This document shows positions 20,825-33,282 of a DNA stretch of 64,000 bases, piece after piece (position 1 is the first letter of the stretch; each line of letters opens with the position of its first letter). The notes under the pieces are model-generated. The model was not told where the DNA came from, did not search any database, and saw only the letters and a program-made list of their open reading frames with translations. The position numbers were made by a program, and so were the translations under genes. Location: IMG/VR virus record IMGVR_UViG_3300037089_000506; one strand, written 5' to 3'. The stretch comes from a virus.

Positions 20825-21022
20825 ATGGAAGCAGTTAAAAGCGAAGACTATTTATCAGATTCAAATGAAGATACTAATTTCAACTCTCCTGTAGGTGCCC
20901 CAATGCCCCCAGGAGGAGGCGCTATGAATAGTAGTGCTCCTCATGAACCTAATGTATTACAGGAGTCTATCTACTACAATAATCATGTAATTCCTCGTAA
21001 TGCTACATTCAAGGTAGAATAA
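20825..21022 (+). CDS. Small hypothetical protein heading the spike/fibre operon
   Basis: Preceded by ACTAATTG (20802-20809); TAATG-coupled to the next gene. Confidence 0.55.
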   Translation: MEAVKSEDYLSDSNEDTNFNSPVGAPMPPGGGAMNSSAPHEPNVLQESIYYNNHVIPRNATFKVE

Positions 21023-22095
21023 TGGATTATTTATTAAAACTCGGTGTTGTTGTAGATAGCAGGCATTTACTTGATAAAGCCCAACCTACCTATGGGCCTA
21101 ACTATTTTCAAGTTAAGGTTCTACCTGATATGAATGATATTAATGACAAGGATGTTAATGGTAACTACTTACTTCCTCGTTATCCAAATTTCTTTAAAAA
21201 TAATGATATCTGTTATCAGCCTGGGGACCCGGTATGGTTAGTTTGTGATGATGATTACCATGTTGGGTTTATTTTAGGGCCAGCACAACCACCCGCAGGA
21301 GAGGATATAACCTCATTTATAGCATTAATAAATAATGCAGAACTTAATGCTGATATGGAGCAAAGTGCCATAAATGAAATTTCTATTCAAAAGCTATCAG
21401 ATACTTATATTACATTCAGTAATGTTTCTACTGGAACCGCAGGACAAATATATAATACAAATATAGTCTACCTTTATGGCTCTGACGGTTCTATCTATTG
21501 TACCAACGGTAATTTTACTCTCACTGTATCCTCAGTAGGGGATGTATATATGGGAGGAAAATCCGTTACACAATACATTAATGGTGACCATTCTTTAGAT
21601 GCTAATGGCAGTACTGAAAATTTATCTTCAAAACGAATAGATGCTTCAGGTATGATTACCCTGAATTCGGGTGGAGGAATGTCCTTGGTTACGGGAGCTT
21701 CACCTTTATCTATACATACATCAGGGGATTTTGATTCTATTGTAGGAAAGACATATAATGAAACAGTGGTTGGTAGTTGTCATAGAACAGTTATGTTAGG
21801 CACAGACGCACAACAAGTATTAGCAGGGAGTTATACTATAGCAGTTCAAGCAGGAGTAATAACATTAGCCTGTAGTGGGCCTCTGACTATTGCATCTCCA
21901 ACTTCAATAGCCCTGGAAACCCTTGTATTAGATTTATCCAAATGCGATACCATTATTCTCCCTACAAACCCTTTACAGGGATTTGCTACAGGGGTTCCTC
22001 CCGGAACTTCTCCTATTGGTTTTATGGCATCTCTCACCCCTGGAGTGGGGGCAGGTACTGCTGTAGCAACATTGGAAGAATCTATGGCATTATAA
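21022..22095 (+). CDS. Baseplate central spike protein (gp5/gpV-like)
   Basis: N-terminal OB-fold-like segment (GVVVDS...QVKVLP...YQPGDPVWL...GFILG) followed by beta-helix-like repeats. Confidence 0.65.
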   Translation: MDYLLKLGVVVDSRHLLDKAQPTYGPNYFQVKVLPDMNDINDKDVNGNYLLPRYPNFFKNNDICYQPGDPVWLVCDDDYHVGFILGPAQPPAGEDITSFIALINNAELNADMEQSAINEISIQKLSDTYITFSNVSTGTAGQIYNTNIVYLYGSDGSIYCTNGNFTLTVSSVGDVYMGGKSVTQYINGDHSLDANGSTENLSSKRIDASGMITLNSGGGMSLVTGASPLSIHTSGDFDSIVGKTYNETVVGSCHRTVMLGTDAQQVLAGSYTIAVQAGVITLACSGPLTIASPTSIALETLVLDLSKCDTIILPTNPLQGFATGVPPGTSPIGFMASLTPGVGAGTAVATLEESMAL

Positions 22096-22103
22096 GGTAT
22101 ACT

Positions 22104-23147
22104 ATGGCATTAGATTTAACCGGATCATTATTAGGCACTATTATAGCCAATAATTTATCTAAAAATACTACATCCTCTTCGTCAGCACAACAATACTGGA
22201 CTCTCGTATGTAATAGTCTCCTTAACTATATACAAAGTTATTTTCCTTCTACCTACCCTTCAGATACATTATCGGTTACTAATAATATTTATTGTGGTGG
22301 TAGCTATTATGGTAATGGGAGTGGTTTGACTTCTGTAAATGCTACTACTGCAACTATTACTGCTGATGTTTCTGCTACTACGTATTATCCTTATTTTGGT
22401 GGTGCTACCGCAAATCAATCGTTGAAATCCTCTACTAATTTATCATATGTTCCCTCTACTGGAACTTTATCAGCAACAAACTTTGTTGGTGGTAGCTATT
22501 ATGGTAATGGGAGTGGTTTGACTTCTGTAAATGCTACTACTGCAACTATTACTGCTGATGTTTCTGGTACTACATATTATCCTTATTTTGGCGCTGCTAC
22601 AGCAAATCAGTCGTTGAAATCATCTGCGTATTTGACGTATACTCCATCAACATCATCCCTGTATGTAACAACTCAATACGGGTATCTTGGCATGGGCGGC
22701 GTATATGGTGGCCCTGGGGTTTCCCCGAATATAGCAATTGGTAATACTTTAACAGGTGTGACAAATGGTAATAAGTTTTTACGAGTAAACTACATAGGCG
22801 GATTGGAGGTTATCAACAGTGCGTACAGTGCTGTAATAGCCACACTTGATGATACAGGCAACATCTCAGCTACAGGTTCTTTTTATACTTATCAAGTGAC
22901 TGGAATTACTTCTGTTACTTGGGTAAACTGGTTTGCCCCTACAGCAGGGCAATCTGGATTTATAATTGCTGTGTCGTCTGCTGGTGTAAATAGATATGAT
23001 ATGTACTATTATGTAAACTGCACAGCAACGGTAACAGTAATACAAATAAATGGTGGTGATGGTACTGTTAGAGCATCAGGTAGCTATGTTCAATATGGTG
23101 GGATGGCCAGCAGCACTATGACTTATTCAGCGATAAGAATATCGTAA
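22104..23147 (+). CDS. Tail fibre / receptor-binding-like protein
   Basis: Ser/Thr/Gly/Tyr-rich; duplicated YYGNGSGLT fibre motif. Start reassigned to ATG 22104. Confidence 0.7.
   Translation: MALDLTGSLLGTIIANNLSKNTTSSSSAQQYWTLVCNSLLNYIQSYFPSTYPSDTLSVTNNIYCGGSYYGNGSGLTSVNATTATITADVSATTYYPYFGGATANQSLKSSTNLSYVPSTGTLSATNFVGGSYYGNGSGLTSVNATTATITADVSGTTYYPYFGAATANQSLKSSAYLTYTPSTSSLYVTTQYGYLGMGGVYGGPGVSPNIAIGNTLTGVTNGNKFLRVNYIGGLEVINSAYSAVIATLDDTGNISATGSFYTYQVTGITSVTWVNWFAPTAGQSGFIIAVSSAGVNRYDMYYYVNCTATVTVIQINGGDGTVRASGSYVQYGGMASSTMTYSAIRIS
22296..22625 (+). repeat. Near-identical 138-bp direct repeat, period 192 bp (64 aa)
   Basis: 22296-22433 and 22488-22625: GGTGGTAGCTATTATGGTAATGGGAGTGG...TTGAAATCmTCT. 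Confidence 0.92.
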
Positions 23148-23155
23148 GGAGAATT

Positions 23156-24262
23156 ATGGATTTTATACCCGTTCCTATTACAGAGTTACTAATAACCTCA
23201 AAATGCAATATGAATTGCTCTTATTGCTTTGAAAAAGACAAGCCACAAAAAACTATAAGTAAAGGAATGATTGACGAGTTTCTGTTAAATTTACCCTCTA
23301 CAGGATTAATGGTATTTGGTGGTGAGCCCTTACTTGCTTTAGACGAGTTTGACTACCTCTATACGTCTATTCAGAAACTTGATATAAATGAAGATATAAA
23401 AGTTGATTTACTAAATTCCTTTACTAAAGATGCTCAACTAATAACAAATGGAACCCTAATAATAAAGAATATAAATATCATCAAAAGACTAAACCTAAAG
23501 TTACAGATAAGTATAGATGGACCTGAGGAAATAAATGATTTATGTAGGGTGGACCATAAAGGAAAAGGTACATACAGTACAGTGATAAGAAACATAAAGT
23601 GCTGTATTGCTAATGATATTCCTTGGAGTTGCCATGGTGCTATAGGAAGAAATAATTTTTCTAATCTTTCAAAGTTATTTGATTTTTGGTGGGAAATCTG
23701 TAAATTAGAAGCAAAGGGTGATTTAGATAAAAGTATTGGAATGCTAGGGGAGAATACATTCCAAATAATATTTGAGGAGAATTATACTGATGATGATATA
23801 GACATATTTTTACGAGAACAAGAGGAAATATTTAATAAAATTTTTTTATTGCCAGAACTAAATCAGCAACAAAAGATTACTTTAGCTAATAATTGGTATA
23901 AAAGAAAAGGAGCGGTTTGTACCGCTGGACATTTTATGTATGCATATAATCTAGAGGGAGAATTGTTTCCTTGTCATAGACTAGCAATGATAGCAGATAA
24001 AAGCAACTATAATTTTTTTGAAAGAGGGCCTAAGTTCTTTAATGCCTTTCTTAATATGGGGAAAAATAAGAAGATGTATTCCAGTACGCAGAATATACTC
24101 GATTATAATAATAGTAATAATAAATACTATCAGCAAAATTGGTGTCCTTCTACTAATGTGCAGACATCAGGAACCCCCTATTACCAATCCTGTAAATATA
24201 ATGTACTTATAGCAGAGTATGGTAGGTTTGTAGATGCTTTATTTGAGTATGCCCATATTTAA
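23156..24262 (+). CDS. Radical SAM peptide-maturase-like enzyme with SPASM/twitch Cys
   Basis: CNMNCSYC (CxxxCxxC), FGGEPLL, LITNGTLI, ISIDGP; C-terminal CTAG...GELFPCHRL, WCPSTN, CKY. Confidence 0.9.
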   Translation: MDFIPVPITELLITSKCNMNCSYCFEKDKPQKTISKGMIDEFLLNLPSTGLMVFGGEPLLALDEFDYLYTSIQKLDINEDIKVDLLNSFTKDAQLITNGTLIIKNINIIKRLNLKLQISIDGPEEINDLCRVDHKGKGTYSTVIRNIKCCIANDIPWSCHGAIGRNNFSNLSKLFDFWWEICKLEAKGDLDKSIGMLGENTFQIIFEENYTDDDIDIFLREQEEIFNKIFLLPELNQQQKITLANNWYKRKGAVCTAGHFMYAYNLEGELFPCHRLAMIADKSNYNFFERGPKFFNAFLNMGKNKKMYSSTQNILDYNNSNNKYYQQNWCPSTNVQTSGTPYYQSCKYNVLIAEYGRFVDALFEYAHI

Positions 24263-24274
24263 TAGGAGAAAGTA

Positions 24275-24913
24275 ATGCCAACTATTGCAAATCCAGTAAC
24301 ACAGACTAATATAGTTACTGATTCAGATATTAGTGCTATTATTGTTGCTATAAACTCATTAATCACTTCGAGAAGCGCAGGTTCTGCGGTGGGAGCGCCT
24401 TCTCAGTATACTAAAATATATGGAAGCCTACCCCAAGGAATAATTACACAAGAGAATACATTAAATTCTACTCACACATGGCCTGGATTAATCAATCCTA
24501 ATGGGTATGGAACTTTAGTTCATTCTAATATAGGTACAAATCTTAGTTTAACTGCTGCTAGTGGTAATTTTAATTCTGGTGTAACTCTGCAAGCTTCTAC
24601 AATGAATGCTATTGTAAATGATATTAATAGTTTATATAATCAATGTGCATGTAATGTAGTAACCTCTAATTATTCTACGTGTAGTTCATACTCATGTACA
24701 GCACATGCTTGTGCGTGCAATGTAAAATGCGCAAATGGGTATTCCTGTACATGTTATACTTATGATATCGGGCATGGGGATCAGTGCGTGTGCCATGGGA
24801 CTAATTGTTGTAACTATAATGGGTGTACCCATGTTACTTGTACTTGTGACTATGTGTGTAGTGCTCAAAATACTTGCAGTTGTAATAATCAATGTGTATG
24901 TGAGTATAACTAA
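24275..24913 (+). CDS. Cys-rich putative radical SAM substrate / fibre-associated protein
   Basis: Last 89 aa hold 21 Cys including seven CxC motifs; N-terminus has two A/S-x-x-N/A-x-I-N-S-L-type helices. Confidence 0.8.
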   Translation: MPTIANPVTQTNIVTDSDISAIIVAINSLITSRSAGSAVGAPSQYTKIYGSLPQGIITQENTLNSTHTWPGLINPNGYGTLVHSNIGTNLSLTAASGNFNSGVTLQASTMNAIVNDINSLYNQCACNVVTSNYSTCSSYSCTAHACACNVKCANGYSCTCYTYDIGHGDQCVCHGTNCCNYNGCTHVTCTCDYVCSAQNTCSCNNQCVCEYN

Positions 24914-25719
24914 TGAAAATAGCTATAGTAACACGTACTCATAATAGGCCATTATTATTACCACGATGCTTACGGAGTATAGATAAACAGGCATATACTA
25001 AATATATCCATATTGTAATATCAAGTAGTAATAATTATGATCAAGATTACTCCTTATGCACGATGCCCTATAATCCTAGAAGAACTATATTAAAAAGTAA
25101 AGAAAATAATTTAGGAATGATGTTAAACCAAGCATTAGAAGTAGCCAAGGACCATAAGTGTGATCTATTTTCTATTCTTGACGATGATGATGAATATGTG
25201 TCTGATAGATTAGAAAAGATAGTAAGGGCATATACTACTGCAAATACCCATGGAATTTCTTGCTTACAGATGACTATAAAAGAGAAGATTATAGATACTT
25301 CTATTATTGAAACCTTTAGGTGGAGACAAAAATTAGATACTTTTAGTATAGTTCCTTATAATGATAAAAATTATAGAAATCCAGGACAATTTACTTATGA
25401 TAACTATGCTTTAGATGTATGTAAAGAGTACCCACCAGAGAGCATTAGCCCCGAACACTACTTTTTACGAAAATTTATGGAGAACAATGCTATTGCTATT
25501 TGCCCTGAATATTTGTTTAGATATCATATAAGAGAGAACGATAAGCCTGGAGAGGGAGAATTACCCAACCTAAATACTATCACCTATGATAATAATATAT
25601 CCCATATACACCGTGATATGGAAATAAGTCAATTGATATCCATAGCTCAATCTGAGAAAAATAATGGGCTTATTTCTTATTTTACTAACTTGTTAGAGGA
25701 AACAAAAAATGATATATAG
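24913..25719 (+). CDS. Glycosyltransferase family 2 (GT-A)
   Basis: IAIVTRTHNRPLLLPRCLRSIDKQ and FSILDDDD. Confidence 0.85.
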   Translation: MKIAIVTRTHNRPLLLPRCLRSIDKQAYTKYIHIVISSSNNYDQDYSLCTMPYNPRRTILKSKENNLGMMLNQALEVAKDHKCDLFSILDDDDEYVSDRLEKIVRAYTTANTHGISCLQMTIKEKIIDTSIIETFRWRQKLDTFSIVPYNDKNYRNPGQFTYDNYALDVCKEYPPESISPEHYFLRKFMENNAIAICPEYLFRYHIRENDKPGEGELPNLNTITYDNNISHIHRDMEISQLISIAQSEKNNGLISYFTNLLEETKNDI

Positions 25720-26611
25720 TAACAATAATTTTGCATATAATCGAAAATATTTTATTAAAGATTTATTCAATCCTCGGGAAATATTTTCTCATTTTAGCCA
25801 GATAACCTTTTCCAATTTCTTGTCTTTTTATAAGTTTTTAGAGAAAAGTCTGTTTACAATAAATCAAAAAGAGTATAAGATTCCTGTTAGCAACCGTAAT
25901 GAGTTACAGATGTTATTAAAAATTATTAGAGAAACGGATATTATTAAAAATAAAATAAATATACAGTTTTCCTCTAATTTATTAGAAGATATTGAAGAAC
26001 TTATAACGGATACTACTATATATTTATCTTCAGATAATAGTACATTACAAAATATAAAAGAAAAAGAAAATAATTATATTTATAATAATACTTTGTTTTG
26101 GACAGAATATATAATTACATCAGATAACTATGCTCAAGTATATAAGGATATGATAAAACTTTGTATTAAGCATCCTGTACTCAATTATATTGATCTAAAA
26201 ATAGATTATTCCTCTTTTGAGGATAAGCCTCTTTCTGAATTACACTCTTTATTCTTCTATCTTAGTTTACTTAAAAAATGGACAACAGAGCCACAGGCAG
26301 CTATGGGCAAGAATCAGAAAATGATAACACTCAAAAATTCTTTTGACCCCGTTAGATGCTATGTTAGCGAATCCCTAGATATACTTTTAGATAAGGACAC
26401 CCCCTATTTTTCTATGGGAAAATATCTAGATTTAAATGGAGAGGATGTTCCTTTGGAGGAACTTAATACAATAAGAAAACTAATAGATGTAAAGTTTGAA
26501 ACAGAATATAAAAATTGGTATTTAATTGATTTAGCCCAGAATCAAAAGGTTATGGAAGATATTTATGAAACTCCTTATCTTGCCAAGTTGGTTCAAAGTT
26601 GGCTATTGTAA
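25709..26611 (+). CDS. Hypothetical protein, possibly a degenerate radical-SAM-like barrel
   Basis: 300 aa, overlaps both neighbours; no CxxxCxxC; the barrel resemblance is weak. Confidence 0.45.
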   Translation: MIYSNNNFAYNRKYFIKDLFNPREIFSHFSQITFSNFLSFYKFLEKSLFTINQKEYKIPVSNRNELQMLLKIIRETDIIKNKINIQFSSNLLEDIEELITDTTIYLSSDNSTLQNIKEKENNYIYNNTLFWTEYIITSDNYAQVYKDMIKLCIKHPVLNYIDLKIDYSSFEDKPLSELHSLFFYLSLLKKWTTEPQAAMGKNQKMITLKNSFDPVRCYVSESLDILLDKDTPYFSMGKYLDLNGEDVPLEELNTIRKLIDVKFETEYKNWYLIDLAQNQKVMEDIYETPYLAKLVQSWLL

Positions 26612-27387
26612 TGGTTAATTTTGATATTGATATTACTTATGAGTGTAATTTATCTTGTAAGTATTGTAATAGATTATGCGGTACTAAATTTAATAAAAAT
26701 GATTTTATGTCTGTATCCCAGTTAGAAAAGTATATTGTTGCAGTTTTACCCCATATTTCTTCTGTATCAAGGATAAACATTCTTGGAGGGGAGCCTACAC
26801 TGCACCCTCAAATTTTTGAAGTTTTGGATTTATTAGTAAAAATACTAAGACCTAAACTATCTTTCCCTATGAATATTGTTTCAAATGGAGTAGGAGAAAG
26901 GGTAAATTCCATACTAGAAGAAATAAGAAAAAGATATAACACCTATGACAATTCACGATCTATAACAATGATTAATCCTTATAGTGTAGCAAAATCTAAT
27001 AAAGATTTTTGTATTGTTAGATCAAAATTTTATAATCAAAAAGTTGTAGAATCCAGGCATCACCCGAACTTACGGGGATTAATAGATTATAAAGATGATA
27101 TAAATATTGATTACTGTTGGGTACAAGATAATTGTGGATATAATATTTCCCCTTATGGGATTTATATATGTTCTATGGCTATAGCCATCTCTAGAATATT
27201 CAAATTAGGAGAAGGGCTGGATCATTTTCCTACTCCTGAAGAACTACTGAACCAAAAGAAAAAAATGTGTAAATATTGCCATATAAAATGTATACCCTTA
27301 CCCCCCTCCCCAGCTATATCCAAAAGTTTTGAAATAGCCATAGAAGAATGGGATAAAGACCCTTATTTTTTAAAGGTTTTAGAATAA
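26599..27387 (+). CDS. Second radical SAM protein
   Basis: CNLSCKYC, INILGGEPTLHP, IVSNG; C-terminal CWVQDNCG...ICS...CKYC. Confidence 0.88.
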   Translation: MAIVMVNFDIDITYECNLSCKYCNRLCGTKFNKNDFMSVSQLEKYIVAVLPHISSVSRINILGGEPTLHPQIFEVLDLLVKILRPKLSFPMNIVSNGVGERVNSILEEIRKRYNTYDNSRSITMINPYSVAKSNKDFCIVRSKFYNQKVVESRHHPNLRGLIDYKDDINIDYCWVQDNCGYNISPYGIYICSMAIAISRIFKLGEGLDHFPTPEELLNQKKKMCKYCHIKCIPLPPSPAISKSFEIAIEEWDKDPYFLKVLE

Positions 27388-27388
27388 T

Positions 27389-27396
27389 ACTAATTA
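27389..27396 (+). promoter_or_regulatory. Putative late-promoter motif ACTAATTA
   Basis: Upstream of AAGGAG and ATG 27410. Confidence 0.65.
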
Positions 27397-27409
27397 TAAA
27401 GGAGAATAT

Positions 27410-27673
27410 ATGGACTTAGAAACCTTAGCTGCTCAAGTAGCGGACTTACAAAGCAAGATAAACCAACTAATGGTAGTTATACCTCAAATTGAAACCCTAT
27501 ATAAGCAAACTACTGCTTATCAGACACACCAAAATCATATTAACAGTGTATGGCAAGAGAGGTCATTATTAACACAGCTAAGAATGGAAGGAATGTCTCA
27601 TTCGAAAGCATTGTCTTATATTAAAAGAATAAATACTGGTGAAAAACCTTGGGAAAATGAAGGGGAATCCTAA
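27410..27673 (+). CDS. Small coiled-coil hypothetical protein
   Basis: 87 aa, AAGGAG RBS. Confidence 0.7.
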   Translation: MDLETLAAQVADLQSKINQLMVVIPQIETLYKQTTAYQTHQNHINSVWQERSLLTQLRMEGMSHSKALSYIKRINTGEKPWENEGES

Positions 27674-27678
27674 TATTT

Positions 27679-28353
27679 ATGATTCCAAAAATCATACACT
27701 ATCTTTGGTTCGGCGACGTTGCTAAAAAACCCATAGATAGGATAAGTTCTTGGAAGAAGATTCTTTCAGATTTTGAGTTTAAAGAGTGGGGTGAATCAAA
27801 TTTAGATATAGACAAATATGAAGCATCTAGAAGGATGTATGATGCTAAACGATACGGTCCTGCATCAGATTCATTAAGAATAGATATATTAGCTGAAGAA
27901 GGTGGAATTTGGTTAGATACTGATATAATAATTCATAGAGATTTGTCTGATTTTTTACCTTATTCATTTTTTATTGGGCATAATGGATTTAATTTTAGTG
28001 TAGGGCTTATAGGGGCGGAACCCCACCATCCTTATATATTAAAGGTAAGGGAATGGTATGAAAATAATTGGAGCAGATGTATGTTTACTGTAGAGGAATT
28101 CAAGAAAAAATCTTTTGATACCTTTTTTCTTGCTAATTACTCCTCCATTTTAGAAAGAGTTTTCAAACAAAGATACAAATGTGTTCTTGATGGAAAGTCT
28201 AAAACATTAGATACTAAAGATGGTTTAATTAGAGTAGAAAATTCTACTGTATTTACTTTTAAAAAGGATAGCAATCCTAATTGCTATGCAGAACATCTTT
28301 ATGAAGGGACATGGCTTTCAAATAATAGGCTTTATCAAAAGACTCGGAAATAG
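27679..28353 (+). CDS. Glycosyltransferase, OCH1/GT32-like (DxD)
   Basis: MIPKIIHYLWFG, SDSLRIDILAEEGGIWLDTD. Confidence 0.9.
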   Translation: MIPKIIHYLWFGDVAKKPIDRISSWKKILSDFEFKEWGESNLDIDKYEASRRMYDAKRYGPASDSLRIDILAEEGGIWLDTDIIIHRDLSDFLPYSFFIGHNGFNFSVGLIGAEPHHPYILKVREWYENNWSRCMFTVEEFKKKSFDTFFLANYSSILERVFKQRYKCVLDGKSKTLDTKDGLIRVENSTVFTFKKDSNPNCYAEHLYEGTWLSNNRLYQKTRK

Positions 28354-28355
28354 AA

Positions 28356-29495
28356 ATGATTAAAATAGCGTATGTGCCACAACATTCTAATTACATCCCC
28401 ATTTTAAGAGGGGGGCAAAGATATGACTTTGGGTATTCTTACCCTTTACAACAGTTAAGCAATGAAGGGCATTTCGAATTAAAAGTTTTTCTTGAAAATA
28501 AAACTTTAGTAAATTTTTCCATGAAAGTAACATTTCCTCTTTTCATAGGGTATCAACAAGATATACCAAACTATACTCACTCAATCCTTGCTATTGATGA
28601 GGTAAGTAAAATGATATCCAAGGATAAAATAGAAAACCCCTTAAAACCTTTTTTAGAACTATACTCAAATAATGACTTATGTAAAAAATTAGATGAATAC
28701 AAGCCAGATATAGTAATATCCTCTTATGCCTTAGATAAAATGGAATATAATTGTAAGAAAATATGGATATGTCATGAGTATTGGCCTGAAACTTTGAGGG
28801 AGTACCTAGAGAATAAAATATCTACAGATATAATTAATACTACTATAGAGATGATAAACAAGGATATGGTAGAAATATTATCTTATTTCGATTACTCTAT
28901 TACTGCTTCTTTAAGGAGTTTTTCTTTTATAGAAAACACAATAAAATCAAAGCGTATTAATATTTATATACCAGAAGGAAATTCTAAGATAGAGTGGGGT
29001 AAAGAGAAATATATAGTACTAAGTGCTTCCGCTGGGTGGTTTAGGTCAAAGGAGCACTTAAGAGAAGTATACCCGCTTATTGAGATGTTAGATAATAGAG
29101 AGAGTAAAAATATTAAATTATACTTACACTGTGGACATGACTTGGGGCTCCCTAAGTGCGATGTAATAAGAAACACCTATAGTCTGTATGATACTTTCAG
29201 CCCTGAATCTGTAGGGTGTGGTATAGCACCAAAAGAGTATAAATCTGCTGACCCCTCCAAAGTGTATATGTACTTATCCTGTGGTATCCCCTCTTTTGTT
29301 CATGAAAACAATTTAGAAAATTTTAAGGATGAAATAGGAGTATCTGCTTATTCTGCTGAAAAAGCTATAGAGAGTATTGAAAACAATATAAGAGAAAAAG
29401 AAAGTAATGCCATTCTCAGTTCCTTTAGATCAAACCATAATTTAGAAACACTAAAGAACCAATGGTTATGTTTTATAAAAGAGATTTTAGGATAG
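28356..29495 (+). CDS. Putative GT-B fold glycosyltransferase
   Basis: YKPDIVIS, PSKVYMYLSCGIPSF and C-terminal HNLETLKNQW typical of GT4-like enzymes. Confidence 0.6.
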   Translation: MIKIAYVPQHSNYIPILRGGQRYDFGYSYPLQQLSNEGHFELKVFLENKTLVNFSMKVTFPLFIGYQQDIPNYTHSILAIDEVSKMISKDKIENPLKPFLELYSNNDLCKKLDEYKPDIVISSYALDKMEYNCKKIWICHEYWPETLREYLENKISTDIINTTIEMINKDMVEILSYFDYSITASLRSFSFIENTIKSKRINIYIPEGNSKIEWGKEKYIVLSASAGWFRSKEHLREVYPLIEMLDNRESKNIKLYLHCGHDLGLPKCDVIRNTYSLYDTFSPESVGCGIAPKEYKSADPSKVYMYLSCGIPSFVHENNLENFKDEIGVSAYSAEKAIESIENNIREKESNAILSSFRSNHNLETLKNQWLCFIKEILG

Positions 29496-29498
29496 AGT

Positions 29499-29660
29499 AT
29501 GGATGATTTTAAAATAGAAAAGTCTAATGATCAAATACTATCCCAAATAGATATATTTTTGTCGTCTATAAATCTTGTAGCACAAAAAGAAATAGAAGGG
29601 ATAGTAAAAGATGCGGAGAACCTAAAGAATGCCCTCAAACAGCACTATAAGCAACAATAA
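29499..29660 (+). CDS. Small hypothetical protein (53 aa, not in track)
   Basis: MDDFKIEKSNDQILSQIDIFLSSINLVAQKEIEGIVKDAENLKNALKQHYKQQ fills the gap in the operon. Confidence 0.45.
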   Translation: MDDFKIEKSNDQILSQIDIFLSSINLVAQKEIEGIVKDAENLKNALKQHYKQQ

Positions 29661-31851
29661 AGCAGAATGGACCACTAATGCTAACTTTGGTCAAATAATA
29701 CCTCAATCCATAAATAATGCTCTTTCTCAATTTAAGACATTTATTACTGAACTCAATAATGCTATTCAAATAGTAAAAGAAATATTGACTGAAGTAGGAC
29801 AATTTTTAGTCTCTCCTTATGATCTTTTGGCTGTGTTTATTAAAAATTATGCTTCCGCTATTATAACGGTATTTGAAGATGCATTGTCTATAGGGGGCAG
29901 CTATATTGTTATTCACCCTTGGAATGTACTAGGAAGCGATGGAAACCCAAAAAACACTATAGATATGCTAGAGCCCCTTGTTGATAAGAATAACTTTACT
30001 GTTTTTAAATCAATAAGTACAACAGTATTACCTGTTGGAGGGAAAAACTCAGGTAAATCTATCCCAGGGCCAACTGCTACTAAAACCACTACAGGGAAAA
30101 AAAGTTCATTCTTTCAAGCGATTCCTTCCCTCACCCCCCAGCAAGCATTTAATGAATTTTTTGCTTCTTTTAGTAATACTAATGATAAACATAAGCCCAC
30201 ATGGTCAGTGAACACTCAAGCCACTGGGTTTGGGTTTCTTATTACCACTGCCAGCCCTTCAGCTTTTATGTCATTGCTTACTCTTTTAGGCCAGTTCTTT
30301 AATTTTAATGAACTTACAGAGGCTAAAAATAATCTATTCAAAACCTTTGCTAACTTTGGTAATGATACCGCCTCTCAAGGACAGAGCGCTTCTCTTATTG
30401 ACTCTAAGGATTTAAGCAAATTCTCAACAGATTGGGCGGGTATAGCTGAAACTAATAATACTCTTCAAACCGGCAATACATCAGAAAAGCTATCTGCTCT
30501 AGATAGTCTCATTGAGAATTCGAATATAAAAGGATATCATTGGGTAGGATTAAACGTAAATAATTTTAGTGTATTACAAGACCTTATCACAATGCTCCAA
30601 AAACTTATTAAACGTGTACAAGATGAGATGGCAACCCAAGAAAATGCCATACAAGAGATGGTAAATGCACTTATAAAGAAAATAACCTCCTTACAGACAG
30701 TACTCCTACAAATATATAATGTCACTACCTCAATTGTAGCAGCATTGGAATATACAGGAATATATACCTTTGTTATTCCTAAGGGTTATGGTGGAGTACA
30801 ATATATACAGCAAGCGCTACAATCTAGTTTAGCTACTTCACCTATAGCAGCCACCCTTAATCTTACTCAACTGAGCGCATTACTATTCTTTGGGGCATCT
30901 ACAGGAGTGAATATAGACTCGTGGAACTCTCTTTTTGCTGCTGCCTGGGCAGCAACCTCTGCTGAATACAACTCTCTTTTATCAGAGTTTAATTTGAATT
31001 TCAATTATAATATAGCGCCTGCTTTTGATACAACAGTCTTTTCCTTTGGTCAAAGTATTAATCTTAGTGTAACTTCTCCGAATGCCACTAGTATACATCC
31101 ATTTTATTATACCTATCAGCTCACCGATAGCTCAGGAAAAATTATATCACAGCAAACAGAGACAAATATTCTTGCAGGAGATGTAGCAATAGTCAATAGT
31201 AGCAAATTTAATATTATTCTATCTCCTCCTGATCTACTTGTACCTCCTTTTGGGACGCTCTTATATAACATCACTATTACTATTTTTGATGGTTTACTCT
31301 CTTCTTTTAATTATAGTAAAACATTTCATGTATCAGATAGTATAAGTAATGTAAATCCTATTATTACTAATACAAATCCAGGAACATTTACTGCCAATAC
31401 AGATGCTAAAGTTACAGTTTATTCCGGAAACACTAAAGTAGAGGAATCTAACTATACTGCTGGGTCCGTAGGATCATTTGGTTCCTCCCTCTATAAAGAC
31501 CAGCAAGGAGTTACTCTAAGCATTACTGATAGTAATGGAACAAATATAACACTTCCTCTATCTGTCTTTGCAGGATACACACAATATGATTATGTAACAT
31601 TCAATGACTTCACTTCTATAAAATTCCTAAGGGTTGACTCCCTCCCTATTATGATATGTTTGGAATTTGGTGGAATACTACAATGGGGTATTCAAGGTAA
31701 ACTCCTGTTGACATTTAATCTTCCTACTTGTATTAAAGTAGCAGAATCAGGGATATATGAGTATTACTACCTAGATAATAATGGTAAGCAGTGGGGTCCC
31801 TACTATATTTCAATTACTACCTCCCCTCTCAGCTCTCTTCATATTTGCTAA
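29629..31851 (+). CDS. Large structural protein (baseplate/tail-associated)
   Basis: 740 aa; helical N-half, beta-rich Ser/Thr/Asn C-half; in the late operon. Confidence 0.55.
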   Translation: MPSNSTISNNKAEWTTNANFGQIIPQSINNALSQFKTFITELNNAIQIVKEILTEVGQFLVSPYDLLAVFIKNYASAIITVFEDALSIGGSYIVIHPWNVLGSDGNPKNTIDMLEPLVDKNNFTVFKSISTTVLPVGGKNSGKSIPGPTATKTTTGKKSSFFQAIPSLTPQQAFNEFFASFSNTNDKHKPTWSVNTQATGFGFLITTASPSAFMSLLTLLGQFFNFNELTEAKNNLFKTFANFGNDTASQGQSASLIDSKDLSKFSTDWAGIAETNNTLQTGNTSEKLSALDSLIENSNIKGYHWVGLNVNNFSVLQDLITMLQKLIKRVQDEMATQENAIQEMVNALIKKITSLQTVLLQIYNVTTSIVAALEYTGIYTFVIPKGYGGVQYIQQALQSSLATSPIAATLNLTQLSALLFFGASTGVNIDSWNSLFAAAWAATSAEYNSLLSEFNLNFNYNIAPAFDTTVFSFGQSINLSVTSPNATSIHPFYYTYQLTDSSGKIISQQTETNILAGDVAIVNSSKFNIILSPPDLLVPPFGTLLYNITITIFDGLLSSFNYSKTFHVSDSISNVNPIITNTNPGTFTANTDAKVTVYSGNTKVEESNYTAGSVGSFGSSLYKDQQGVTLSITDSNGTNITLPLSVFAGYTQYDYVTFNDFTSIKFLRVDSLPIMICLEFGGILQWGIQGKLLLTFNLPTCIKVAESGIYEYYYLDNNGKQWGPYYISITTSPLSSLHIC

Positions 31852-32850: not shown

Positions 32851-33282
32851 ATGCCAGTATACCAAAATTTACCAGGAGTAGTAGAAACTTGTCATGAGGT
32901 AGGATGTTATTTTTCATGCTTATTTCATTATAGAGACTTAATTGGATTACCTACCTCTATAGATTTATTAAATTCAACTTGGTATGATGCTTTTAATAAG
33001 AATATTTTAGATTCAGGATATAATATTGTAGACCCTAATGGACTATGCCAATTAATGGAAATTCCTTTACAATATATTGATGGGCACTTTCCACCTTCAA
33101 TACCTTTAGATTCCACTGTCTATAGAATACTTTGTCTTTTTAGACCAAGTAATGGTTTTCACCATTTTGTTCAAGGTAATGATAAAAACTCTATTTTTTA
33201 TGATCCTATTACACCGTATAGCCTTACTGCAAAAGCTCCTGAAACAATAGTAGATTCATTAAGGTTATATAAAATTATTTAA
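32851..33282 (+). CDS. Papain-like Cys-His-Asp protein resembling Borrelia DUF261
   Basis: GCYFSCLFHY, HHFV, IFYDP and C-terminal SLRLYK follow the DUF261 pattern as recalled (GCYFLCLHYY...HF...LYDS...KRIFK). Confidence 0.6.
   Translation: MPVYQNLPGVVETCHEVGCYFSCLFHYRDLIGLPTSIDLLNSTWYDAFNKNILDSGYNIVDPNGLCQLMEIPLQYIDGHFPPSIPLDSTVYRILCLFRPSNGFHHFVQGNDKNSIFYDPITPYSLTAKAPETIVDSLRLYKII

Follow-up and report, generated by a model that had tools for sequence, protein, structure and literature searches.

A radical SAM enzyme and a cysteine-rich protein with a hypervariable loop in a conserved phage gene cassette: a candidate for a covalently braced host-contact protein

Introduction

Why would a phage place a radical S-adenosylmethionine (SAM) enzyme of a peptide-modifying kind directly upstream of a protein whose last part is crowded with Cys residues, and surround both with glycosyltransferases? 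This question is raised by positions 23156 to 29495 of the IMG/VR virus record IMGVR_UViG_3300037089_000506, of which we analysed a stretch of 64,000 nucleotides, referred to as the window. The window derives from an uncultured phage of low GC content (~33%) and carries genes for a major head protein and for a clamp loader, a helicase, and a recombinase of the UvsX type; megablast with the window found no close relative in the GenBank phage set. An earlier note on this DNA had described eight cassette genes, namely two radical SAM enzymes (rSAM1 and rSAM2), a 212-residue Cys-rich protein, three glycosyltransferases (GTs), an open reading frame (ORF) of 300 residues (unk300), and a small coiled-coil protein (s87), and had suggested that the Cys-rich protein is a crosslinked and glycosylated fibre-tip protein. 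All eight genes were recovered by ORF calling at the coordinates given there, all are co-directional, and they overlap or abut (Table 1).

Here we report that the Cys-rich protein is likely the substrate of rSAM1, because the gene pair is conserved across distant loci and the tail of the protein is built from hexads like those of known thioether substrates. We propose that the cassette makes a post-translationally braced host-contact protein, a tentative reading to which we assign a probability of roughly 45%. A role in host contact or in the virion fits because the pair lies in baseplate and fibre modules in the relatives, and because the variation between strains falls in the Cys-rich tail and in the fibre-like gene.

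The Cys-rich protein and its family

The Cys-rich protein has the composition described earlier, with 21 Cys residues and seven CxC motifs in the last 89 of its 212 residues. An exhaustive HMMER search of 1.84 billion representative proteins yielded a family of 11 representatives, none of which carries a name or a Pfam domain, and the IMG/VR search gave no match to the protein; the family is thus real but rare. The family alignment divides the protein into an N-terminal domain (N-domain) of ~123 residues, in which D18, I19, I22, I26, N27, E29, R33, N64, H67, G102, D116, L120, and Q123 are invariant or near-invariant, and a Cys-rich tail; where the two join, it shows no conserved cleavage motif, be it a double glycine or another. 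Among the eleven members, the tail covers a five-fold range of length, from 41 to 191 residues with 12 to 56 Cys, and in the relatives including the loci found later it reaches 190–250 residues with 56–74 Cys. The C-terminal end is conserved as CSCNxxCxCE[YF]x. Across the family, 2 and 4 are the predominant Cys-to-Cys spacings, and the residue that follows CxC is N, D, E, or Q in 76 of the 87 family-wide cases, against a background of 35%; the repeating unit of the tail is therefore the hexad C-x-C-[N/D/E/Q]-x-x.

With the family alignment as input, AlphaFold2 modelled the N-domain as three helices and a hairpin with a pLDDT (predicted local distance difference test) score of 60–77, and the tail with a pLDDT of ~30, while the single-sequence model (pLDDT 31) was unusable. 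The tail is thus predicted by the model to be disordered before modification. Foldseek searches of the PDB and BFVD and a wide VIA-align search returned nothing above background for the fold of the N-domain.

rSAM1 belongs to a peptide-modifying clade by sequence

The cysteines of the radical SAM CxxxCxxC motif (C17, C21, and C24) are invariant in the five rSAM1 orthologs compared, and only four further cysteines (C150, C255, C273, and C330) are conserved in them. The earlier note had called the enzyme SPASM-type, which holds for the first half of the SPASM domain, C255-x17-C273 with the PCHR motif, and for membership of the SPASM/Twitch peptide-modifying clade, but not for the CX2CX5CX3C half. 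Hence the full SPASM motif (CX9-15GX4C ... CX2CX5CX3C ... C) is not found in rSAM1, and there is room for one auxiliary cluster only. An N-terminal RiPP recognition element (RRE; RiPP, a peptide made by the ribosome and modified post-translationally) is also absent, as the radical SAM motif begins at residue 17 and the alignment starts at residue 101 of CteB.

Comparison with NCBIfam, a check suggested by the earlier note, gave the ranthipeptide maturase PapB (NF047865) as the best match, with an E-value of 1.7e-29 and a score of 103 bits (cut-off 340), followed by other RiPP maturases; all 53 matches lie below their cut-offs. A profile of the five orthologs matched the solved structures of the thioether synthase CteB (5wgg; 1e-22 over residues 101–387), anSME (7e-15), and SkfB (6efn; 4.7e-5), and the alignment with CteB spans the core of the radical SAM domain and, of the SPASM domain, the first hairpin (C255...PC273HR). 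Judged by these matches, rSAM1 is a half-SPASM, Twitch-like member of the SPASM/Twitch peptide-modifying clade that stands outside every curated family. Either unk300 or the folded N-domain of the substrate may stand in for the absent RRE. As a separate observation, the rSAM1 ortholog at L006:6967-8067 ends in ...KQCNCE, resembling the CxCE[YF] C-terminus of the substrate, and the substrate gene begins before the gene of this ortholog has ended.

The pair and its partner recur in distant relatives

We collected the contigs encoding Cys-rich family members together with rSAM1 orthologs (designated L with a number) and compared their ORFs with those of the window. This synteny comparison, which the earlier note had proposed as a check, showed that the cassette recurs in about 12 independent loci of distant relatives, and the cluster is beyond chance because the same gene set is found in many unrelated contigs. 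Wherever the upstream flank lies on the contig, an rSAM1 ortholog with 31–50% identity is encoded directly 5' of the Cys-rich gene; the direct pair is seen in the window, L006, L010, L011, L012/13, L014, L017, L018, L019, and L044, with one gene between the two in L045. The unk300 gene is present in the loci with enough visible flank.

Two layouts can be distinguished. Type A loci (the window phage, L011, L012/13, L014, L017, and L010) have the order rSAM1, Cys-rich protein, unk300, and s87, followed by one to five GT32 paralogs, a carbamoyltransferase, rSAM2, and a GT-B or RGP gene. In the type A relatives, a third radical SAM enzyme with a complete SPASM motif (rSAM3) is encoded between the Cys-rich protein and unk300, in the slot that the GT2 gene occupies in the window. 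Type B loci (L006, L007, L018, L019, L044, and L045) have the order unk300, rSAM1, and Cys-rich protein, and, where ORFs were scanned downstream, small CxxCxxCC proteins (L018 and L019) and sulfotransferases (L006, L007, and L019) follow. The gene sets of both layouts define a minimal core of unk300, rSAM1, and the Cys-rich protein, to which interchangeable tailoring genes are added. The tailoring genes of type B, at L006:8731-9734, L018:11903-12319, L019:11996-14824, and L007:1557-2105, comprise one or two sulfotransferases (PF00685, PF13469, and PF17784) in place of the GTs and the CxxCxxCC proteins, which are borderline matches to PF03692 (22.7 vs 23 bits).

Where the flanks of the relatives can be annotated, the sequence matches place the pair in baseplate and fibre modules: L012 has Tail_P2_I and tail-spike/virion-structural PHROGs (1e-42 to 1e-47) upstream, L019 has the baseplate wedge phrog_6 (1e-44) downstream, and L006 has Baseplate_J. 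No protease, exporter, or immunity gene was found in any of the about 12 loci.

Several of these contigs deserve a separate remark. L014 (JGI 3300082197, 732,019 bp) carries a type A cassette beside proteins of 2356 and 1234 residues, DegT, FdtA, a methyltransferase, and a B12-binding radical SAM enzyme, and represents a very large phage or else a cellular contig that includes a prophage. L044 and L045 are short contigs binned to a Saprospiraceae metagenome-assembled genome (MAG), with a Cys-rich protein of 368 residues and 74 Cys, and to a Bathyarchaeota MAG, respectively; both are probably phage contigs, and the Bacteroidota bin gives a weak hint of the host. A cassette of similar logic is found at L004:4954-13456, in an IMG/VR jumbo phage of 260 kb with terminal repeats, and likewise in L002 and L003. 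There, a 688-residue fibre is followed by a full-SPASM radical SAM enzyme (370 residues), two small proteins (97 and 118 residues) that bear (CQx)n Cys-rich tails after an I..A...L helix, a second SPASM radical SAM enzyme (324 residues), and a 579-residue fibre. Comparison by hhalign (E=0.005, probability 8%) does not demonstrate homology of the two small proteins to the Cys-rich family, and we treat the arrangement as an analogous system.

Strain-level variation is concentrated in one loop of the tail

Near-identical strains were compared with the window over 12.4 kb (L001) and over 20.6 kb (L042 and L043). L001 differs at 13 nucleotides, 8 of which fall in a 76-bp patch at 24755-24830 within the tail of the Cys-rich protein; the chance of such clustering in any 76-nt window of 12.4 kb is ~1e-10 by our binomial estimate. 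L042 and L043 differ by 31–32 mismatches and indels that total 21 nt, with 7–8 differences in the same patch. Outside the patch, all but three of the differences of L042/L043 lie in the fibre-like gene, and about 20 other genes are identical. The fibre-like protein differs from those of L042/L043 by ~16 amino acid substitutions, a one-residue insertion, and a six-residue insertion (TGNLGI), and in the gene for the 357-residue protein upstream of it the strains differ at 2 nt.

The longest Cys-free loop of the tail, from C160 to C171, lies at the centre of the patch. Every change in the patch is nonsynonymous, and none affects a Cys residue. Six sequence variants of the Cys-rich protein were found in public assemblies, and several patch sites are multi-allelic (T/I/S at 162, I/T/D at 165, Q/R/Y at 170, and V/M/Q/E at 172). 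In the more divergent strain L015, the patch has another 12 changes, all in codons with a changed amino acid. L001 combines a fibre C-terminus of the window type with another patch allele; the fibre and the patch therefore vary independently. Such a pattern is expected of a host-interaction surface carried on a fixed Cys framework.

Partner protein, rSAM2 and tailoring enzymes

The 300-residue ORF has no family match, as noted before, and its orthologs, with 26–44% identity, were found in L006, L011, L012, L014, L017, L018, L019, and L045. A poor model in the ESM Atlas hinted weakly at a TIM barrel or a pseudo-radical-SAM fold, with a template modelling (TM) score of 0.53 to a viral radical SAM cluster. 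Neither hhalign comparisons with the profiles of rSAM1 and rSAM3 nor a profile search of the PDB bore this out, and we set the pseudo-radical-SAM assignment aside.

rSAM2, the second radical SAM enzyme of the earlier note, is borne out by PF04055 and the motif CNLSCKYC. Only its first ~100 residues match viperin, MoaA, or CteB. Its conserved cysteines are at 12, 16, 19, 23, 169, 175, 187, 220, and 223, of which C169, C175, C187, C220, and C223 form a Cys-rich C-terminal motif. The rSAM2 orthologs are encoded amid GT32 paralogs and a carbamoyltransferase, and in L014 also near the sugar-nucleotide genes DegT and FdtA. Because rSAM2 travels with glycosyltransferase genes in the relatives, it more likely acts in glycan chemistry than on a peptide, judging from this gene context.

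The three GTs named in the earlier note all stand. PF00535 matches the GT2 enzyme with 42.5 bits against a gathering cut-off of 23.3, and PF04488 matches the OCH1-like enzyme with 34.6 bits against 23. The GT2 gene is lineage-specific, with no ortholog in any related locus, and its product has no sequence match to any solved GT, SunS-type entries included. The conserved pairing of a GT2 S-glycosyltransferase with a Cys precursor, which would mark a glycocin, was not found here, as the GT2 gene adjoins the Cys-rich gene in the window phage only. The GT32-like enzyme has two to five paralogs (36–46% identity) in L011, L012, and L014. Among solved structures, it has local matches around the DXD motif only, to protein-glucosylating GT-A enzymes, which gives a weak hint that it acts on a protein acceptor. 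The 379-residue enzyme has no hidden Markov model match and no PDB sequence match; its assignment comes from a predicted model in the Atlas (predicted TM-score 0.74, feature score 0.96), which matches Glyco_trans_1_4 clusters with TM-scores of 0.74–0.77 over more than 330 residues, and an ortholog with 36% identity is found in L011. The s87 protein has no family match, and its orthologs in L011, L012, L014, and L017 are sometimes duplicated.

A proposed mechanism and the evidence that weighs against it

According to the mechanism that we propose, the N-domain would act as a domain to which the enzyme, and perhaps the virion, docks. rSAM1, probably together with unk300, would install intramolecular thioether links of the ranthionine type from Cys to nearby side chains. 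The reaction would take place in the reducing cytoplasm, where irreversible thioethers could provide a covalent bracing unattainable by disulfides, and the disordered tail would be drawn into a compact knot on which neither proteases nor redox conditions act. The longest Cys-free loop (residues 161–176) would stay exposed. Like the neighbouring fibre, it would be subject to strong diversifying selection, and it would therefore most likely contact a variable host structure, such as a receptor or a defence component. The GT2, GT32-like, and GT-B enzymes and rSAM2, a probable sugar-modifying enzyme, would add a lineage-specific glycan to the Cys-rich protein or to the fibre, so that decoration would be by glycosylation in type A and by sulfation in type B. 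What the sequences show is the gene content, the family, the synteny, the motif statistics, the Cys conservation, and the variation between strains; the chemistry, the substrate pairing, the virion location, and the glycan target are inferred. A more far-reaching version, which we regard as rather doubtful, holds that large phages build a new receptor-binding module in this way, in which a virion-attached protein has a thioether-knotted hexad tail, a glycan or sulfate decoration, and one hypervariable loop that sets host specificity.

Several observations weigh against a braced host-contact protein. The enzyme scores far below the curated cut-offs and lacks the second auxiliary cluster and the RRE of the characterised ranthisynthases. 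Of the seven positions taken as putative acceptors, two are themselves variable, 161 (N/Y) and 174 (N/H), and neither can be an obligatory acceptor. The N-domain is not fibre-like, shows no similarity to the fibre-like protein, and matched no known virion fold, and no fused long fibre forms of the family were found, which is weak evidence. In the window phage, the cassette has genes of replication and of lysis on its flanks; of its neighbours, the fibre is only marginally identified by sequence matches and the spike not at all. Moreover, a conserved leader with a hypervariable core is also a hallmark of diffusible RiPPs.

Alternative explanations

The last point leads to the alternative that the N-domain is the leader and the Cys tail the core of a RiPP-like product, which is crosslinked, glycosylated or sulfated, and released at lysis as a bacteriocin, signal, or metal binder without being part of the virion. 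A precedent is the glycocin sublancin, which is encoded on the prophage SP-beta. The conserved N-terminus with a hypervariable core of variable length is the classic RiPP architecture, the tailoring genes vary between lineages as they do in biosynthetic gene clusters, and the N-domain has no virion-like fold. Against this, the about 12 loci lack a protease, exporter, or immunity gene, the junction lacks a cleavage motif of the double-glycine or any other conserved type, and tails of 190–250 residues with 56–74 Cys, as in the relatives, are very long for such a product. The annotatable flanks place the cassette inside baseplate and fibre modules, and the variation parallels that of the fibre gene, so we consider a diffusible product unlikely. 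The Cys residues might instead ligate metals or Fe-S clusters without any crosslinks, in a protein resembling metallothionein or serving the radical SAM enzymes as an electron donor or scaffold. The five-fold range of tail length (41–191 residues) is unfit for a defined cofactor site, a hypervariable, diversifying loop is unexpected in a redox carrier, the preference for N/D/E/Q after CxC is not a feature of metal sites, and ferredoxin-type motifs are absent. These features make metal binding a quite unlikely explanation, even though the CxC and CxxxC spacings and the N/S/T/G-rich composition are metallothionein-like, radical SAM enzymes need reductants, type B loci add the small CxxCxxCC proteins, and a metal-related function has also been suggested for the archaeal protein CrpA (PMC13692751).

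It is also conceivable that the enzymes belong to a pathway that modifies glycans or nucleic acids and that the Cys-rich protein is an unrelated neighbour. This can hold for rSAM2 and the GTs, as rSAM2 and the GT32 paralogs co-occur with a carbamoyltransferase and the sugar-nucleotide genes (DegT and FdtA) in L012 and L014, and as rSAM2 matches only the N-termini of viperin or MoaA. It cannot hold for rSAM1, which falls in the peptide- and protein-modifying SPASM/Twitch clade and persists in a trio with the Cys-rich protein and unk300 in type B loci without any GT (L006, L018, and L019); for the cassette as a whole, we judge the explanation very unlikely. A different matter is how the patch arose. 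Whatever the maturation of the tail, it might have been written by a diversity-generating retroelement (DGR), since the differences lie at codon positions 1 or 2, bar two accompanying third-position changes, several sites have three or four alleles, and an AAY or AAG template codon could give rise to each of the variable codons. However, blastn-short, relaxed blastn, and a repeat finder revealed no template repeat in the 64-kb window of the ~197-kb genome, and among the 30 window ORFs scanned there was no YxDD-type reverse transcriptase-like ORF and no reverse transcriptase Pfam match. A degenerate-pattern scan of JGI metagenome contigs for a template gave 21 chance matches, none from the window phage. 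In addition, the patch has many A-containing codons, three AAY codons among them, that are invariant, some variants differ at one site, unlike the wholesale re-randomisation by a DGR, and the patch lies away from the extreme 3' end of the gene. A DGR origin is highly improbable on these grounds.

Comparison with known systems

For the crosslinking by rSAM1 that we favour, the Crp system of Methanococcus voltae is the closest precedent. In this system, the SPASM radical SAM enzyme CrpC (TIGR04463) puts ranthionine links in CrpA, a 28.8-kDa Cys-rich protein with CxxQ/D repeats, the recognition of which involves its N-terminal region (PMC13692751). The window family likewise has a protein-sized putative substrate adjoining the radical SAM gene (in about 12 loci), a conserved N-terminal part that would serve recognition, and repeated C-terminal Cys motifs of the C-x-x-(Q/D) type (76 of the 87 CxC motifs). 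A carboxamide or carboxylate is found at position C+3 in both, as CxxQ/D in CrpA and as CxC[N/D/E/Q] in the window family, and AlphaFold confidence is low for both tails. There are significant differences, however. rSAM1 scores 49.6 bits against the TIGR04463 cut-off of 525 and is not a member of that family; CrpC has an RRE and a second auxiliary cluster, whereas rSAM1 is without both; and the repeat of the window protein is a six-residue hexad instead of the 17 or 34 residues in CrpA. Furthermore, the window family is set in a phage tail module and is accompanied by a hypervariable loop and glycosyl or sulfo tailoring.

PapB of the freyrasin system and CteB of the thermocellin/SCIFF system (5wgg) share with rSAM1 the radical SAM core and the CX12-17...PCH(R/Q) β-hairpin. 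PapA also contains six-residue CX3D repeats, as the peptide designs quoted in PMC12373016 likewise indicate. The putative substrate in the window is a 212-residue protein with a folded N-domain rather than one with a leader peptide, and rSAM1 scores far below the cut-offs, has no RRE, and could hold only one auxiliary cluster. The Twitch synthase SkfB (6efn) shows that a thioether can be formed with a single auxiliary cluster and is a weak profile match to rSAM1, but it has an RRE, makes one sactionine link in a small peptide, and is similar in the radical SAM core only.

Phage adhesins with a conserved attachment domain and hypervariable loops are known from T2-type gp38, and the tail protein Mtd of BPP-1 is diversified by a DGR. 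The Cys-rich protein resembles them in its gene position beside a fibre, its conserved N-terminal part, and its short hypervariable segments on a rigid scaffold. In contrast, there is no similarity of sequence or fold; gp38 and Mtd use polyglycine sandwiches or a C-type lectin fold where enzymatic crosslinks are proposed here, and the DGR parts that accompany Mtd were not found in the 64-kb window. Glycosylation of virions by virus-encoded enzymes is known for the major capsid protein of chloroviruses and for the capsid and tail of mycobacteriophages. As in those viruses, the GT genes of the window adjoin structural genes, and the fibre-like protein has a marginal match to a chlorovirus glycoprotein repeat; the chlorovirus and mycobacteriophage systems, however, have neither a radical SAM maturase nor a Cys-rich substrate.

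Hence the pairing of a radical SAM maturase with a Cys-rich protein substrate is already known, while the phage tail-module setting, the reduced enzyme, the hexad substrate, the conserved partner protein, and the naturally hypervariable loop are new. A full-text literature search for radical SAM, SPASM, or ranthipeptide in combination with phage tail or fibre found no such system described. If the braced host-contact protein proves true, radical SAM crosslinking of the RiPP type would extend from secreted peptides and one archaeal protein to the host-recognition hardware of phages, RiPP chemistry would become a structural tool of virions, and there would be an explanation of how covalent bracing without disulfides can come about in a part of the virion that is assembled in the reducing cytoplasm. 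For enzymologists, the cassette provides a compact maturase that has a single auxiliary cluster and no RRE, a protein-sized substrate of hexad repeats, and a conserved partner protein. For phage biologists, it offers a candidate receptor-binding scaffold with a natural allelic series at defined loop positions, and about a dozen divergent homologous cassettes are open to comparison.

Gene map and neighbouring genes

The features of the cassette and its neighbours are collected in Table 1. A good ribosome-binding site precedes the rSAM1 gene and the Cys-rich gene, each.

Table 1. Coordinates in the window of the cassette genes, their parts, and the adjoining genes
Feature	Position	Strand	Basis or remark
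357-residue protein 5' of the fibre-like gene (context)	21022..22095	+	no match
Fibre-like protein, 347 residues	22104..23147	+	PF06598, phrog_30299
rSAM1	23156..24262	+	PF04055 E=7e-13, motif CNMNCSYC
Cys-rich protein, 212 residues	24275-24913	+	ORF call
N-terminal domain of the Cys-rich protein, residues 1-123	24275..24643	+	family conservation
Cys-rich tail, residues 124-212	24644..24913	+	21 Cys, seven CxC; putative crosslink substrate
Hypervariable patch, codons 161-186	24755..24832	+	strain differences
GT2 glycosyltransferase	24913..25719	+	PF00535 E=8.7e-11
unk300, 300 residues	25709..26611	+	no family match
rSAM2, 258 residues from ATG	26611..27387 (alternative start 26599)	+	PF04055 E=3.3e-10, motif CNLSCKYC
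ACTAATTA motif	27389..27396	+	13 nt 5' of the ATG of the 87-residue gene
s87, 87-residue helical protein	27410..27673	+	orthologs in relatives
OCH1/GT32-like GT-A glycosyltransferase with DXD motif	27679..28353	+	PF04488 E=3.2e-8
GT-B-fold glycosyltransferase, 379 residues	28356..29495	+	ESM Atlas model
740-residue downstream protein (context)	29629..31851	+	no family match

The fibre gene reported ahead of rSAM1 is present, but its start is at 22104 (MALDL...), giving 347 residues rather than the 401-residue ORF, and its identity as a fibre is marginal: PF06598 is matched with 28.3 bits against a cut-off of 27, and the tail fibre family phrog_30299 with E=3e-5 over 80 residues. The gene contains an internal direct repeat of 165 nt (22295-22459 and 22487-22651) with 90% identity. 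The impression by eye that the 357-residue protein is a baseplate spike was not supported by Pfam, PHROG, or PDB. The 740-residue protein encoded downstream of the cassette has no family match in Pfam or PHROG and no homolog in the related loci. Further downstream, at 32851-33282, a 143-residue protein encoded after a putative holin-like gene shows a sub-threshold match to DUF261 (E=6e-4, 20.4 bits vs a cut-off of 26.1).

The ACTAATTA motif lies where the earlier note had seen it, before the gene of the small protein, but it is not enriched, with 11 copies in the window against 8.6 expected from shuffled sequence. Five of the 11 copies (6410, 8243, 27389, 31851, and 61787, on the + strand) are located no more than ~25 nt upstream of an ORF start, and these could represent a late-promoter or leader element.

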